A DNA stretch of 63,613 nt, filler included, from Candidatus Woesearchaeota archaeon (GTDB lineage Archaea > Nanobdellota > Nanobdellia > Woesearchaeales > BM511), in NCBI GenBank assembly GCA_023266675.1. It is 4 parts of 4 records of this genome, joined end to end, with 100 filler letters (N's around TTAATTAATTAA, not from the genome) between each part and the next. Parts side by side here need not be neighbours in the genome. Positions count along the whole stretch, not along the records: positions 20,566 to 40,393 come from JAHFPP010000020.1; positions 40,494 to 45,639 come from JAHFPP010000076.1; 2 more parts are not named here. The stretch is one strand, 5' to 3'. The first letter of the stretch is position 1. Each line of letters opens with the position of its first letter. This document shows, piece by piece, positions 39,001-45,000 of the stretch. The position numbers are program-made.

Positions 39001-42000
39001 TGCATACCTGTGGATTGCGATAGAACACAAACTTAACATGATGATAATTGGAGAGACTGCAAGCGGAAAAACTACTTTTCTAAACAGCATAATGCATTTC
39101 ATACCGCCAGAAGCAAGAGTGTGCTCCATTGAAGATACAAGAGAACTTAATCTTGCGCATGACAACTGGCTCCCCTCAGTCACACGAGTAGGTATGGGCA
39201 TGCCAAATCAGGACGGAACAGAATACGGAGAAATAACGCTCTTTGACTTGCTTCGCGAGTCATTCAGGCAGAATCCTGATTATGTAATAGTTGGTGAGAT
39301 AAGAGGCAAAGAAGCTTATGTGCTTTTTCAAGGCATGGCATCAGGACATCCTTCCTTTGGAACTTTTCACGCTGGAAGTGTAGAAACATTGACACGGCGA
39401 CTTCAGACACCACCAATAAGCCTTCCAGCATCACTTGTTGAGTCACTTAACATTGTTTGCGTTGCAAGTCACATAAAGGAGAAAGACAGAAACATAAGAA
39501 GAATAAGGGAAGTATGCGAGATACAGCAGGTTGGCGCCGAAGGGCAGGTAAAATACAAAAAACTCTTTGAGTGGGATGCACAAAAAGATATGATTATACG
39601 AAACGGCGCATCAGTGCTGTTTGAAAAAATAGCCAAAGCATCAGGCCTAAGCGTGGATTATCTTGAAACAGAATTAAAAAAAAGAGCAGAACTTTTGAAA
39701 ACTCTTGAAGAGAGAAAAATCTTTGATTTTAAACTAATAAACAAGATAATAAATGACTATTATCAAAATCCATCAAAAGTCATGGCCGAATATAACATCA
39801 AATAATAATCAATACCTTACTAAATCAAAATCATAATTCCCGCTGTTAGCAAGTAAAAAGAAGAGGTAACTTTGAGCACCGAAAAAATAAGAGAGGAACT
39901 TGAAAAAATAAAAACACTGTCTTCGCTCCAGAAGAATCTTCTAAAAATTGAAAGTGCAAGCAGCGAAAAAGAACTTGAAGTGATAAAGACTAAACTTGTA
40001 ATAACGCGTGAAGAGATGCTGAAATCCACGTATTCAATAAACAAAATTTTAAAACAGCTTGAAGAAAAGGTCTGACAACATGCATGAAGACCTAAAAACA
40101 TATATCGATGAAACAGAGCTGATATTAAAAGAAATTGACAGGTACAAAACTTTTAAAAAAGAACTCCTTTCTGACTTAAAGAGACTTAACAAGGAATATG
40201 ATTCTGAATTGATTGATTATAAAACATACCTAAAATTAAAGGAAAAACTCTTTAGCGGCAAAACAAAGGAAGAAAACATAGAATACTATAACTCATACAT
40301 TCTTTCACTTGTAAAAAAAATTGAATACATAAATACGCAGATATTCTCGTTAATCTACAACTATGTACCTGAGAATTCCATCAAGCTGCAAGCNNNNNNN
40401 NNNNNNNNNNNNNNNNNNNNNNNNNNNNNNNNNNNNNTTAATTAATTAANNNNNNNNNNNNNNNNNNNNNNNNNNNNNNNNNNNNNNNNNNNNAATAATT
40501 GATTTTCATATCTCCAAACCTTTCAGAATGAGTGAATGTGAAGCCTACTTTTTTCCATTCATACAATTTTTCTTTTGAGTATTCCCCTGTCTTCTTATAT
40601 GGAAAAACTGATACAGGTGATATCAAGACAATTGAATCTACATGTTTATTCTTTGATGCAACCTGAAGCGTTACAATTCCTCCAAGCGAGTTTCCTATCA
40701 GAAAAATACGGTAGGTATACCTAGAGATTAATTTTATGCATGATTTTAAGTCATCAATATACTGTGATATTGTTGTATCCTCAAATTTTCCGTCGCTTTC
40801 CCCGCGTCCTGAGAAGTCAAAAGCAAATAATCCAACTCCTTTCTCTGTAAGAACTTTGCTCAATGCTACTACTTTTGAGGTTTCCTTTGTGCTTCGATAA
40901 CCATGGCAATATATTGCTATCGGGAAATCAGCATTTTTTTTTGGAGCATAAAGAACTCCTATAAGTTTTTGTCCTCTGGAGTTATTAAACCATAATTTTC
41001 CTTTTCTCATTTGTCTTCAATTTCAATTGTTATCTTTGATTCTTTCTCGTTGATGTCTTTTACGACTTTGTGGTCTTTTAGTTTCTCTTTGATTTCCTTC
41101 CATGAGTGCTTTTTGCGCGCTTTTTTTAGCGTGTCAATAACCTCTTTGATAAGCGTGTAGTTCTCATAAATAATTTCGCCGCTGCGCTTGTTTTCATTGT
41201 ATCCTTTCTCAAATGTTTCAGCCTGTTTTTGCTGCATCCTTATTATATCTTTGACTTTACCAATCTTTTTCTCGTGCTTTGAAGTCTCTTCTTTTTTCTT
41301 TCCAGAAATTACGCTTGGCGTGACAACATAATCTATTGCAGAGTTAAAACTTTCAAATGTTTTATTCTCTTTTCCAGTCGCATAAGTTGAAAAAGGGAAT
41401 ATCTCCTCTTTGTCAGTCACGATAGCTTCAATCTTTTTCTTAACTATTGATTTTAGCACATCATGAAGCTTTCTTATTTCGCTTTCAGTTAACTTTTTCT
41501 TCCCTTTGTCTATCTCTGCCTCACTGCATATCTGTTCAGCGTATATCCCGCCGATTCCTAGGTCCATTGCAAGCATTTTCACTATCGATTCTTTGTCAGA
41601 CTCGTCAACGGCTTTTTTCAAATCATCTTCACTCATGTCAATTATGCTGTACTCTTTTGTCGGAAAATCGTATTTTACGCCGCCGCGAACAGTTCTTTTT
41701 GTCATCACTTTTGTTTCAAGCGCAGACATTATTGTGTAATCATCTTTGCAGAGAATTATGTTGCCTTTTGAGAAAAGTTCAATAATCATCCTGTATTTTT
41801 CTTCTTTTGATTCAAACTCTATCTCTACTATTCTTTCAAAGCCAACTTGCCTGATGTTTTTTACTCTTGTATTTTCTAGATATTTTCGTAAAAACATGCA
41901 AAATCCGCCTGGTGTCTGCGGGAAATCAGGTTTTTTTGAAGCAAGGTAGAAATATTTTGGTGCAATTACACTCACCATCTGTTTTCCGTGAGACGTTACA

Positions 42001-45000
42001 TGAAACTGCAAAACCATGTTTTTTCCTTCCTGGTATATCTTGTCAACTTTGCCGCCAACTAGAAATGAAAGCTCAGAAATTATGTAGTGCAAATCAAGCG
42101 ATGATGTATCTGTTTTCATAAATCTAATGATAGCACAGTATTCTATAAAAATGTTTGCTCAAGAAACTTATATAGCATAAGTTAGTAATATTTTTAGATA
42201 ATCAATATTTTCTTTGTCTTTCAATGTCGCCTTTAACCCTTTAATGCTTGGGTCCTTATTTTTGCTTATATCGCTGTTTATTGTTGATAGAACATAATCT
42301 TTAATGATTTTCAATCCGACATATAATTCCTGTCTTACTATATCATTTAAATCTGAGGTATTTTCTGTTGTGAAACCAGAGTAGGGGTTAACATTTTTTG
42401 ATTGTTCAAGAGATGCATTCATGTGTCTTACATATGTTCCAATATTTTCAAATTGTGGTCTTCCTCTAGGTTCTATAGTACTGGACATTTCTTCTAATCT
42501 TTTCCCAGCCTCAACCAATTCGTCTATGAAGTCGTTTATAGAATATGTGCTCATCATGTATCAATATAGACTTTATAATTTTTATATATAAATCTTTCTA
42601 TAGTTTACCATTAATTAGTAGTGTAACAGACTACCTTATTTCTTCCGGTTTCCTTAGCCTTATATAATGCCTTATCTGCAAAATTTTTAAGATTAGACGC
42701 TATTTCTTTAGCCAATCCTGATTTTGGATCTGCTTTTCCGGTGTTTTCAGGATAACTTGCAACACCAATACTTACACAAAAATTATCAAATCTTGGGTCA
42801 TTAGACACGTGAGTATGTGTTTTTTTTACCTCATTCATTACTTCAACAGAATCTTCATATACCTTCTTCCTTATTCTTTCTGCTGTTATTTTTGCATCAT
42901 TTATTGAAGTATCCGTAAGAACAACCAAGAACTCTTCACCACCCCATCTTCCTATAACCTCATTTTTTCTCAGACTGTCCTTTACTATTTTTGCAAATGA
43001 TTTTAGCACAATATCACCCGTATGATGTCCAAACGTGTCATTGTACGACTTAAATTTGTCAATGTCAATCATTAGAACACTTATATATCCCTCATTTCTT
43101 ATTGCTCTGTTTGTCTCATTTTCAAGAAATTCCTCAATTTGTCTTTTATTTGATATGTTGGTTAGGAAATCAACTGACGCTAACCTTTCAAGATTTTTAA
43201 TATCTGATGTTTTACCCCTCTCAGCGTTTGTTCTTGAAACATTAAGTCTATGCAGAAATTTCAAAACTTTCTTATTCTTTGGAAAGCCGTACCTAAAAAG
43301 CTCAACTAGCCTATTATAATAATCACTGTACTCTTCTGGTTTTGAAAAAGTCTGTACATCTCTTTTTATAGCGTTGATAATTTTCTCAGATTTACCATAA
43401 CTAACTATTCTTTTCCAGAATGTATCACCCCAGTATTCGGAAAATAGCTTTTCAGATAACTCTCTTGAACGATATGTTTTTTGAAATAACAGTTCAAATG
43501 GTTCATGTATTGTTTTTTTCTCATATTTTAGCAGCGCATCAATCTGTTCAACATAACTTAACATTTTTTCATTCCATTCTCTAATCAAACTTTCATAATT
43601 GGAAACATGCATCATAGAATCATTCTTCGCATAATCCTTTATATCCAATATAGTTCTAATCTCATCTTCAATATTTTTCTTCTGCTCTGTATAACCTAGT
43701 CTGAATATGGCAATTCTTTTTTTGAATTGCATTATTGCCGATTCTGTTTCATTGTCTATCATAACCTGCTCTTTTATTTTCTTTAGAAGTTCTGATGGAA
43801 ATTCCTTCTCTTTGAATCTTAGTATGTTATGATAAACCCTTGTTTCATACGCAACATCGTCCCTTAATATCTTTTCTTCATTCTCACTTATCTGTTCAGC
43901 AGGCAGCAATGTGATTGTATTTAAATCAAATGAAATAAAAGCTCTTTGAAGCATTTTTAATATATCTTCACATAATATAATTATCCTATCTTCCTTCTTT
44001 CCATCACTCCATCTGTTGTTTATCTCAGAAAGAAGCATTCTTACCTTTATTTTGTGGTCATAAAGAACTTTCATCCGTAGTTCAAAGCTTGCAAGAATAT
44101 TCTTTTCTTTCTCTTCAAGATTATCAATTACGTCAAAAATGTGCCCTAGCTCTTTAACATCCATTAATTAGACATATTATCTCCACTATATAAACTTTTT
44201 TTTAAAACATAGCTTCAATTCAGCTTAAAGTCAACCCAAAGCATATATATACGCTTGATATAACAAACATTATCATCAATTGGAGGAAATAATATGAGCT
44301 TAAAAAAAACTATTCAGATTTTGTCAATTTTAATCTTAGTATTTACTTTAGTATTATCCGGATGCACAAAAGTGCCAGGGAAATTAGAACAAAAACAAAC
44401 AACATTTAGCCAAAATACGTTTGACCCTAAACTTAATATTGAAGCAAAAAGCTTCGCGAGTGATGCAGAGTTTCAGAGTTTTGTAAAGCAAAACCAGATT
44501 GAATCTGGCGGATACAATGGTGGCATATTAATGAGGACATTAAGCTCTGCGGCACCAGCCATGGCGGAAAAAGCAGCAGATTCTTCATCGGGTTCTGGAG
44601 TGTCACAAAACAGCTATTCACAGACAAACAATCAAGTTGCTTCAGTTGACGAGGCTGATATAATAAAGACTGACGGAGAATACATTTATACAATAAGCCA
44701 GAACACGCTTTTCATAGCAAAAGCGTACCCGGGAATCGAGTCAAAAATCGTTTCAACAATAAAATTTAATTCTACTCCACAGGGGATTTTTCTAAAGGAT
44801 GGAAAACTTACAGTATTTGGAAACTTTTATGACACAGCATATTTTAAAAAAATGAATTTTATTCCACGTAGCGGAATGACCTTTTTTGATATTTATGATA
44901 TTTCAGACAAAGAAAAACCTGTGCTTGTCAAGGATTACAAGTTTGAAGGAAATTATTTTCAGGCAAGAATGACAGGGGACTATGTGTACTTTGTAATAAC

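Follow-up and report, generated by a model that had tools for sequence, protein, structure and literature searches.

The two genes and their features

The window analysed here, a stretch of 63,613 nucleotides joined from four parts of the genome of a Candidatus Woesearchaeota archaeon (GCA_023266675.1), encodes the N-terminal half (N-half) of the ribosome quality-control factor RqcH, a member of COG1293 (10.1101/2020.09.03.281279), while the C-terminal half (C-half) is encoded on another contig (Table 1). The open reading frame (ORF) of the N-half is complete from its ATG start to its TGA stop, matches Pfam NFACT_N over residues 8–348 (model positions 3–364 of 456, E 2.1e-51) and spans positions 1–378 of the 645 positions of the NCBIfam model NF041120 (RqcH_arch) with 289 bits. 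NEMF, RqcH and Rqc2 are its matches in a PDB profile search. The Asp/Glu-Arg tRNA-recognition motif of NFACT-N, represented by D97/R98 in B. subtilis RqcH (PMC8373112), is present in the N-half, in which E95-R96 aligns to Asp-Arg of RqcH (7aqc/7as8) and of NEMF with Asp replaced by Glu; an alignment of 26 N-halves shows no exception at R96 and a conservation of at least 90% at E95. The next gene encodes an alpha/beta hydrolase (40438–41010, minus strand) and overlaps the N-half gene by 4 bases, and as the stop codon overlaps the start of this unrelated gene, the N-half ORF truly ends there.

The C-half spans positions 381–640 of NF041120 with 317 bits, and in Pfam a match to NFACT_N model positions 369–424 is followed by the complete NFACT-R_1 model (1–112 of 112, E 2.7e-34). 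A kinase-like ORF precedes it, with its end 26 bases upstream of the C-half. Among 29 aligned C-halves D103 and H107 do not vary, showing that the Asp...His motif of NFACT-R is present on the second gene; mutation of the matching motif abolishes 50S binding in B. subtilis (10.1101/2020.09.03.281279). This genome contains no further NFACT copy. An A+T-rich octamer resembling a TATA box was recognised by eye upstream of the N-half and again 24–31 bases 5' of the ATG of the C-half, a hint that each half may have its own promoter.

Table 1. Positions of the features of the split RqcH; window coordinates unless another contig is named.
Feature	Position	Strand	Description
N-half of split RqcH	41007..42119	(-)	370 aa; NFACT-N, HhH, CC1, first M-hairpin strand
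E95-R96 codons	41832..41837	(-)	align with D97-R98, tRNA-recognition motif of B. subtilis RqcH
CC1, first coiled-coil helix	41124..41285	(-)	residues 279–332; from the interface list of the complex model
C-terminal beta-strand (predicted M-hairpin strand 1)	41013..41042	(-)	residues 360–369; from the complex model
N-half TGA overlapping ATG of next gene	41007..41010	(-)	next gene encodes an alpha/beta hydrolase
A+T-rich TATA-box-like octamer	42144..42151	(-)	25–32 bases 5' of N-half ATG; by eye
C-half of split RqcH	G000:C66:388-1167 = L001:388-1167	(+)	259 aa; outside the window

Site of the split

The initial annotation had described RqcH as encoded in two pieces with a break in the coiled-coil/middle region. 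Both statements hold, as the two complete ORFs cover model positions 1–378 and 381–640, and the gap that it had left between M. jannaschii residues 400 and 462 is no loss, since the halves tile NF041120 and comprise 629 residues together compared to a model of 645 positions. The equivalog cut-off of NF041120 is 400 bits, and the halves jointly cover the whole model while each scores below this cut-off, which makes them a split orthologue, neither gene being a full member alone. When both halves are aligned to fused relatives from this class, the N-half terminates and the C-half begins approximately 0–6 residues from one another, and position 3 of the C-half aligns with residue 361 of RqcH, 461 of NEMF and 505 of Rqc2. 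At this site the fused relatives have a strand, a turn of 2–4 residues and a second strand; the M domain was described as a small beta-hairpin between both coiled-coil helices (PMC8373112; 10.1101/2020.09.03.281279). Moreover, strand-like termini are conserved at the ends of all 26 N-halves and at the starts of 29 C-halves, and a start codon lies at or a few residues from the homologous position in every extracted C-half locus (29 from Woesearchaeales and 11 from other orders). By these alignments the break can be refined: the cut sits where the beta-hairpin of the M domain turns, at the outermost end of the coiled-coil arm.

Distribution in Woesearchaeales

The order was sampled with one genome per family, covering 121 families and thereby five-fold the earlier sample. 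Of the 121 genomes, 111 yielded an N-half, in frames of at most 457 aa, 114 a C-half and 106 the pair. In 101 of these 106 the halves lie on different contigs and in the other 5 on the same contig, 179–418 kb apart; neither adjacent halves nor a frame of fusion length was present in any of the 121 genomes. The split is therefore conserved across the order with unlinked halves, as had been proposed. The listed N-halves are 37–47% identical to the one in the window and the C-halves 51–61%. Eight genomes (82–97% complete) contain a C-half and no N-half by protein query or Pfam model, which is about the number predicted from incompleteness, and real loss in some is possible.

Long frames at several C-half loci (479, 417, 382 and 367 aa) were considered as fusions and rejected: the sequence upstream looks untranslatable and a Met is placed at the homologous site, which also explains the single 479-aa frame recorded earlier. 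The in-frame stops that had been a concern in N-half matches turned out to be the genes' own terminal stops in the eight flagged cases, which are complete ORFs of 354–372 aa. Among the flagged C-half loci, L055 has an internal stop and was left out, and the other three aligned cleanly. In 29 N-half and 29 C-half loci of Woesearchaeales, cysS and rps19e were absent within approximately 1.5 kb of either half, and the neighbours in this genome (the hydrolase, the kinase-like ORF, a 129-aa ORF and a 255-aa ORF) do not recur beside the halves elsewhere.

These data also bear on whether the split is an artefact or a state of decay, through a frameshift, a faulty assembly across contigs or pseudogene formation. 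Such a suspicion might arise because the assembly is a draft in 83 contigs, with no more than about 0.5 kb between either half and a contig end. However, unrelated complete genes adjoin the junction side of both halves, so that neither a frameshift nor a contig break accounts for it, more than 100 genomes carry this pair of ORFs, which in the single-contig genomes are separated by 179–418 kb, and the sequences are strongly conserved. An artefact is extremely improbable and is refuted by the counts across the order.

Probable reassembly of the two chains

The initial annotation had suggested that the halves work as a heterodimer. In a structure prediction of the complex of N-half and C-half the score was 0.66 (single runs 0.67, 0.66 and 0.66) vs. 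0.01 for the best of three controls, with at least 91% of the contacts shared among the runs and a pLDDT of the partner of at least 83. Of 157 solved complexes, 116 attain the mark for this score, as do 2 of 215 mismatched pairs, counts that are only rough for the RqcH halves since own alignments were used. The predicted interface comprises residues 279–332, 354 and 360–369 of the N-half and residues 1–9 and 12–52 of the C-half, with CC1 (279–332) placed antiparallel to residues 12–52 and the strand 360–369 paired with residues 1–9; for the residue pairs 363:6 and 364:5 the expected error is below 1 Å. According to the model, the two-helix coiled coil and the M hairpin of RqcH would be complete only across both chains. 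The good score may reflect a memory of the fold rather than binding of the two chains, as structures of single-chain RqcH, NEMF and Rqc2 have been solved. Next to the model, the pattern of gene loss bears on the interaction. The N-half was found in none of 13 genomes of family f133, one of f151, seven of f139 and one of f164, and the NFACT-R proteins of these four families begin at approximately residue 57–70 of the C-half, i.e., without strand 2 and without the second coiled-coil helix CC2. Taken together, the complex model (0.66 vs. 0.01) and the co-loss of the pairing helix support the heterodimer and suggest that the halves assemble, and homology and the conserved motifs suggest that they do so to function as RqcH. 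Against assembly, unlinked genes offer no built-in matching of the amounts of the two chains.

Alternatively, the halves might work separately, the C-half as a solo large-subunit factor, possibly in a Jlp2-like release of peptidyl-tRNA, and the N-half as a tRNA-binding protein, without forming a stable heterodimer. This would fit the unlinked genes in 106 of 106 genomes with both halves, the eight genomes with the C-half only and the four families with an NFACT-R-only protein, whose His-Thr motif is invariant and which indicate that the module can survive, and presumably function, by itself. Moreover, Jlp2, the solo NFACT-R protein of yeast, is reported to release peptides via a conserved His that is absent in Rqc2 (10.1101/2025.09.04.673968), and the C-half has the invariant His107 at the aligned position, at which Rqc2 has no His. 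Jlp2 and CCDC25 are solo NFACT-R proteins of eukaryotes (PMC4075521; 10.1101/2025.09.04.673968) and resemble the C-half in being short, in combining NFACT-R with a coiled-coil segment and in the conserved His of the NFACT-R cavity motif. However, the coil of the C-half is N-terminal, corresponds to CC2 of RqcH and is the predicted partner of the N-half, whereas theirs is C-terminal; by its order of segments the C-half does not belong to the Jlp2/CCDC25 type (NFACT-R followed by a C-terminal coil), and it descends from a fission of RqcH, while Jlp2/CCDC25 derive from a eukaryotic partial duplication. No CCDC25 chain appeared in PDB profile searches with the C-half (E up to 0.1) or with the NFACT-R-only proteins (E up to 1). 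Separate work is also difficult to reconcile with the retention across approximately 120 families of CC1, CC2 and both terminal strands, which have no obvious role outside the joint fold, with a confident and specific predicted interface on exactly these elements and with the absence of strand 2 and CC2 in the four families that have lost the N-half. We regard separate work of the halves as unlikely.

A single-chain RqcH could also be formed if mRNA trans-splicing or a split intein joined the halves at the transcript or the protein level. Nanoarchaeum indeed joins tRNA halves in trans (PMC3655853), so that this type of joining is present in the wider group. But both genes have start and stop codons of their own at conserved positions, the two hairpin strands themselves form the termini, and 629 residues together vs. 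645 model positions leave no room for intein segments, making this route very improbable.

We therefore favour, with a probability of roughly 0.7, a true fission of archaeal RqcH (NEMF/Rqc2 family) at the turn of the M hairpin, after which the chains reassemble and act as RqcH; observed in this reading are the fission as such, where exactly it lies and how it is conserved. Chain 1 would supply NFACT-N for tRNA recognition, HhH, CC1 and strand 1, and chain 2 would supply strand 2, CC2, NFACT-R for large-subunit binding and the C-terminal part. They would most likely rejoin noncovalently through an antiparallel coiled coil of approximately 50 residues, with an intermolecular sheet of two strands as its cap, restoring the shape of the single chain. 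The assembled factor would act on split-off large subunits that still carry peptidyl-tRNA, recruit tRNA and drive template-free tailing of the nascent chain.

A second order and the origin of the split

The initial annotation was right on the split in Woesearchaeales, while its scope is wider than implied as other orders of the class are affected too. In a second order, nine genomes from five families (G150, G412, G339, G218, G398, G416, G309, G363 and G378) carry N-half, cysS and C-half on one strand; the halves are separated by cysS or by an rsmB-PUA-cysS block and lie upstream of rps19e. In the same order, family f161 has a fused gene, which in G392 is followed by rps19e. Four families keep the NFACT-R part only, with N-half and pairing helix both gone. 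The cysS-flanking halves, the one fused family and the four NFACT-R-only families are new here. In G363 a 1101-aa open frame was considered as a polypeptide of N-half, CysRS and C-half and rejected, because this region resolves into three individual ORFs, of which two use a different frame.

As the halves flank translation genes upstream of rps19e and the fused gene lies likewise, the fission probably arose in place, i.e., when translation genes were inserted at the site that encodes the hairpin, and the halves would have been scattered later in Woesearchaeales. The trees of the two parts, both unrooted, differ on f161. In the C-part tree the fused f161 genes are nested inside the split genes, and an AU test gave p 0.013 against excluding f161 for a group that was named after the tree had been seen; in the N-part tree the 24 split rows together form a clade (86% support) from which f161 is excluded. 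The junction in the fused genes of f161 showed no scar of re-fusion, e.g., a retained Met. As a tentative and rather unlikely extension, the class might represent a stepwise record of the dismantling of the factor: a fused rqcH upstream of rps19e (stage 1), halves parted in place by cysS with or without rsmB and the PUA gene (stage 2), scattered halves as in Woesearchaeales and Nanoarchaeum (stage 3) and loss of the N-half and the pairing helix, leaving a minimal NFACT-R protein beside rps19e (stage 4). NFACT-R would then have an activity of its own, and f161 could be a secondary re-fusion.

Comparison with known systems

The novelty implied by the initial annotation was too high, since the same gene with the same cut site was listed for N. 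equitans and Nst1 in 2013: Table 1 of Podar 2013 (PMC3655853) contains a split 'predicted RNA-binding protein', NEQ438/NEQ506 in N. equitans and Nst176/Nst251 in Nst1. On the N. equitans Kin4-M chromosome the NFACT_N half lies at 387.3 kb and a 255-aa half with CC2 and NFACT-R at 449.8 kb, positions at which genes numbered about 438 and 506 would be expected on a genome of 491 kb, and our junction alignment includes a pair with a C-half 100% identical to the N. equitans record. For Nanoarchaeota the split as such was thus published by 2013 at the latest, under an older, generic name. Nanoarchaeum shares the family, the cut in the hairpin turn and the unlinked halves (62 kb apart), but belongs to another order, while here the split is order-wide in Woesearchaeales and extends to further orders. 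With respect to a common descent of this split with that of Woesearchaeales, both trees place the two Nanoarchaeum-type rows (G152, G312) between fused genes from other families, with long branches and weak resolution. In the literature searched for a split RqcH/NFACT in archaea, only Podar 2013 was found; judged by titles and abstracts, 'split' in archaeal NFACT papers refers to ribosome splitting. The available text of PMC6514570 (DPANN and RQC terms) makes no mention of a split, and the word is absent from that of Burroughs and Aravind 2014 (PMC4075521), which describes an archaeal neighbourhood of NFACT, Mut7-C and AMMECR1.

The halves together show the domain order (NFACT-N, HhH, CC1, M hairpin, CC2, NFACT-R) and the motifs of single-chain RqcH/NEMF/Rqc2 (NF041120; B. 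subtilis RqcH 7as8 and 7aqc, human NEMF 9gy4, yeast Rqc2 8aaf), but are two polypeptides from unlinked genes. Other split protein genes in DPANN encode reverse gyrase, AlaRS and Dph1/2 (PMC6349945; PMC3655853). They are likewise essential or conserved information-processing genes of reduced genomes, cut where reassembly in trans is possible; RqcH differs in keeping an intermediate, with halves flanking inserted genes on one strand.

Implications

Studies of RqcH and NEMF have dealt with a single chain, with a long coiled-coil arm that swings on the ribosome. A natural cut at the hairpin touching the stalk base indicates that covalent continuity is dispensable there. For the biochemistry of ribosome quality control the split offers a two-piece system in which the tRNA-binding and the subunit-binding half would be separately titratable, and a cut of B. 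subtilis RqcH at about residue 360 would be analogous. Thousands of Woesearchaeota entries of about 255–260 aa (2713 relatives of 142–454 aa at E up to 1e-5) carry the name 'DUF814 / NFACT RNA-binding domain-containing protein'; they represent one half of RqcH, and its counterpart is to be sought. Moreover, cysS between the halves and the NFACT-R-only lineages together supply a series of gene-fission intermediates of a kind rarely available for reduced genomes. If the stepwise reading is true, NFACT-R with its invariant His would act on stalled large subunits, e.g., in a Jlp2-like release of peptides, and fission would have uncoupled the activity of NFACT-R from tRNA-dependent tailing.

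Two genes cover archaeal RqcH

In this genome (G000) the ribosome quality-control factor RqcH (NEMF/Rqc2 family) is encoded by two ORFs (see table). The window consists of several contigs separated by runs of N, and the N-half lies on the contig at 40494-45639, while the C-half is located on C66, a contig outside the window. The N-half is a complete ORF, of which residues 8-348 match Pfam NFACT_N (model 3-364 of 456, E 2.1e-51). The C-half ORF starts with NFACT_N model positions 369-424 and also holds NFACT-R_1, and this is exactly the one NFACT-R_1 match in G000 (83 contigs, 95.9% complete). 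On the 645 positions of NF041120, the NCBIfam equivalog for archaeal RqcH, the N-half covers 1-378 (289 bits) and the C-half 381-640 (317 bits); therefore, the two genes tile RqcH with nothing missing. A frameshift, a contig break or a pseudogene as cause of the split was excluded because an unrelated gene occupies the junction side of each half: an alpha/beta hydrolase ORF shares 4 bases with the stop end of the N-half, and a kinase-like ORF ends 26 bases 5' of the ATG of the C-half.

Two further features of the window were recorded. Two genes upstream of the N-half lies an ORF for a GGDEF diguanylate cyclase, and a cyclase of this c-di-GMP type is unusual for a small DPANN genome. A weak NFACT_N match on C57 probably belongs to another protein with a helix-hairpin-helix (HhH) region and not to an NFACT gene, since many genomes of the class have comparably weak matches within frames of 530-620 aa.

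Features and gene orders around the RqcH halves, with their positions
Feature	Location	Strand	Details
N-half ORF	window 41007-42119	-	370 aa
C-half ORF	G000:C66:388-1167	+	259 aa
NFACT-R_1 match	G000:C66:595-933
GGDEF ORF	window 42611-44164	-	517 aa; full PF00990, E 1.4e-39; GGEEF motif
Weak NFACT_N match	window 4732-4995 (G000:C57)	+	model 153-238, HhH part, in 612-aa frame
RsmB/F-type RNA methyltransferase gene after N-half	L145 3012-4285	-
cysS between RqcH halves, itself cut	L128 (G218:C7:32800-37695), 1660-3945	-	240-aa and 251-aa ORFs
1101-aa frame	L184 (G363:C4:57000-62500)
N-half, cysS, C-half	G150, G412		f135
N-half, cysS, C-half	G339, G218, G398, G416		f145; additional 128-aa ORF in G339 and G218
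N-half, cysS, C-half	G309		f144; additional Ser-hydrolase ORF
N-half, cysS, C-half	G363		f158
N-half, rsmB-type methyltransferase, PUA protein, cysS, C-half	G378		f148

The cut lies in the hairpin between the coiled-coil helices

The last segment of the N-half is strand-like and conserved, with 0-3 residues after it, and the C-half starts with Met, a second strand-like segment and a helix opening with a conserved Glu/Gln-Asn-Ala. In other families of the class, fused relatives contain these two segments with a turn of 2-4 residues in between, and the halves align end to end on them. Wherever the split occurs among the class genomes compared, its site is identical. On single-chain homologues the C-half profile begins at residue 361 in B. 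subtilis RqcH, at 461 in human NEMF and at 505 in yeast Rqc2. For B. subtilis RqcH, a preprint describes the coiled-coil tip as touching uL11/H44 at the stalk base (10.1101/2020.09.03.281279).

Conservation and linkage across Woesearchaeales

The order was surveyed with 121 genomes, one per family and including G000; the unpublished G112 is among them and does not affect the counts. Of these genomes, 92 have a completeness of at least 90%. The N-half query found a match in 111 genomes (84 of the 92), the C-half query in 114 (90 of the 92), and both halves were matched in 106. The N-half gave no match in G010, G014, G026, G044, G048, G068, G069, G095, G105 and G112, and the C-half none in G002, G024, G049, G062, G069, G095 and G111. 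When the ten genomes negative for the N-half were searched with Pfam NFACT_N, only the CC2 stretch (second coiled-coil helix) of the C-half and weak HhH-type matches in unrelated long frames came up. The count of misses is about what chance would give at a completeness of 56-99%, and some genomes may truly have lost a half.

The claim of the initial annotation that the halves are split and unlinked across the order holds in these numbers: they lie on different contigs in 101 of the 106 genomes with both, and in the other five they share a contig, separated by 418 kb (G016), 352 kb (G085), 333 kb (G097), 252 kb (G098) and 179 kb (G025). Moreover, the partner half is absent from all 29 N-half and 29 C-half loci extracted, with at least 1494 bases downstream in 24 of the 29 N-half loci and upstream in 25 of the 29 C-half loci. 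All N-half frames are at most 457 aa long, whereas the fused genes of the class reach 553-739 aa. The C-half frames of 479, 417, 382 and 367 aa, the longest four, were considered as fusions and rejected, since they read through non-homologous sequence upstream and carry a Met at the position of the homologous start. The caveat of in-frame stops disappeared for the N-half, where all 8 flagged matches contain the terminal stop of the ORF itself (complete ORFs of 354-372 aa); on the C-half side one locus (L055) has an internal stop and was dropped, and L036, L039 and L049 aligned cleanly. A protein-database search returned 2713 relatives of 142-454 aa (E up to 1e-5); nearly all of the best 120 measure 251-280 aa, and those among them with a name come from Woesearchaeota or Nanoarchaeota and are called 'DUF814 / NFACT RNA binding domain-containing protein'.

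Predicted reassembly of the halves

The full-length pair was folded as a complex with 26 N-halves and 29 C-halves in the respective alignments, resulting in an ipSAE of 0.66 (runs 0.67, 0.66 and 0.66) compared to 0.01 for the best of three controls; at least 91% of contacts are common to the runs, and the partner has a pLDDT of at least 83. Among solved complexes 116 of 157 pass the mark used, as do 2 of 215 mismatched pairs; these figures serve as a rough guide here, own alignments having been used. In the predicted interface the first coiled-coil helix CC1 (N-half 279-332) packs against CC2 (C-half 12-52), and residues 360-369 of the N-half form an antiparallel two-stranded sheet with C-half residues 1-9, including the pairs 363:6 and 364:5. 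This modelled interface is what fission predicts. Since structures of single-chain homologues are solved, the pass may be due to likeness to that fold and not to the two chains binding each other.

Independent support for assembly comes, at the level of gene content, from co-loss. The N-half was not found in f133 (0/13 genomes), f151 (0/1), f139 (0/7) and f164 (0/1), and the NFACT-R proteins of these families start at about C-half residue 57-70, therefore being without strand 2 and CC2. By contrast, among the 36 NFACT-R_1-positive class genomes compared outside Woesearchaeales, each of the 11 with a full C-half has an N-half too. These lineages are mutually related, so the co-loss describes a pattern and cannot serve as a statistical test.

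Furthermore, functional motifs are retained on both halves. E95-R96 of the N-half align with D97-R98 of B. subtilis RqcH, described as tRNA-recognition motif in PMC8373112, and the invariant D103 and H107 of the C-half correspond to the Asp...His NFACT-R motif, which is required for 50S binding according to the preprint (10.1101/2020.09.03.281279). Rejoining of the halves by a split intein or by trans-splicing is unlikely, given that start and stop codons are conserved on each half; moreover, 629 residues in total against a 645-position model leave intein segments without room. The observation and interpretation of the initial annotation are judged sound, and it is likely that the two halves form a heterodimer.

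Fused, split and linked forms in other orders

NFACT-R_1 was found in 247 of 301 genomes of a phylum-wide sample (G307 and G308 are unpublished), and the 36 positives of the same class outside Woesearchaeales were compared. Fused frames of 553-739 aa occur in 10 (f129, f130, f140, f141, f147, f152, f153, f154); 11 are split, with a C-half of ~250-280 aa and a separate N-half (f132, f135, f136, f144, f145, f148, f149), and the remainder are NFACT-R-only or interrupted by a contig end. The NFACT-R-only proteins of f139 (L176, L178 and L180 in G414, G405 and G390; 237-244 aa) lie beside rps19e and have a conserved N-terminal extension of ~110 aa where CC2 would be, for which no match to anything compared was found.

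The linked INTERMEDIATE of the halves was sampled in the order containing G150 (121 genomes), where a C-half-like gene occurs in 28 genomes and is absent from most families. In nine genomes of five families N-half, cysS and C-half lie on one strand, frequently with overlapping stop and start codons, and the middle gene was identified as CysRS (PF01406, E 1e-107). The long frame of G363, tried as one N-half-cysS-C-half chain, was rejected: the locus holds three separate ORFs in two frames. In G218 the cysS pieces cover PF01406 model 2-176 and 188-300, and the interrupting ORF of 270 aa carries a Phage_endo_I nuclease domain.

In f132, G151 has the run N-half, rsmB, PUA, cysS, G353 has a looser form of it, and the C-half is located elsewhere; G331 and G132 retain N-half, rsmB and PUA, whereas in G303 this trio and a cysS, C-half pair are on separate contigs. 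An RsmB/F-type gene comes after the N-half in f132 and f148 as well as at 7 of the 29 Woesearchaeales loci (L009, L010, L013, L026, L028, L032, L034), with the PUA (UPF0113) gene next in f132 and f148; this is a conserved neighbourhood tied to ribosome biogenesis. In many of these lineages rps19e is found downstream of the C-half or NFACT-R-only gene. In f161 all 5 genomes encode a fused gene of ~600 aa, with rps19e next in G392.

Origin of the split

As the simplest reading, translation genes would have inserted at the hairpin-coding site, resulting in fission in place, and the halves would have dispersed thereafter. In the C-part tree the split genes of Woesearchaeales and the second order group with 98% support, and the fused f161 genes (L157-L159 and L165; G399, G381, G366 and G392) are nested among split C-halves; a tree with all 31 split rows together was rejected by the AU test (p 0.013), for a group chosen after the tree was seen. 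However, in the N-part tree all 24 split rows form one clade (86% support) with f161 outside. This conflict could stem from tree error, from re-fusion in f161 or from fission having happened more than once at a permissive site. Both rows of the Nanoarchaeum type have long branches and fall among fused genes, so the Nanoarchaeum and Woesearchaeales splits may or may not share one origin.

Relation to the published gene split

One public record with a match is Nanoarchaeum equitans Kin4-M, where the C-half lies at 449.8 kb and the NFACT_N half at 387.3 kb. The older title of COG1293 is a 'predicted RNA-binding protein'. The positions fit the gene numbers of NEQ438/NEQ506, the split gene listed as 'predicted RNA-binding protein' by Podar et al. 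(2013; PMC3655853), and a preprint places RqcH in COG1293 (10.1101/2020.09.03.281279). Literature searches returned no paper naming the NEQ438/NEQ506-type split gene as RqcH/NFACT and no report of an RqcH split in Woesearchaeales. As a summary, this kind of split is already known; Woesearchaeales adds another member to the published gene split, and the largest clade known to have it. New here is the linkage of N-half and C-half around cysS in a second order, and value is added by placing the cut exactly, by counting the halves across the order and by setting out a series of forms: fused, interrupted, scattered and NFACT-R-only.
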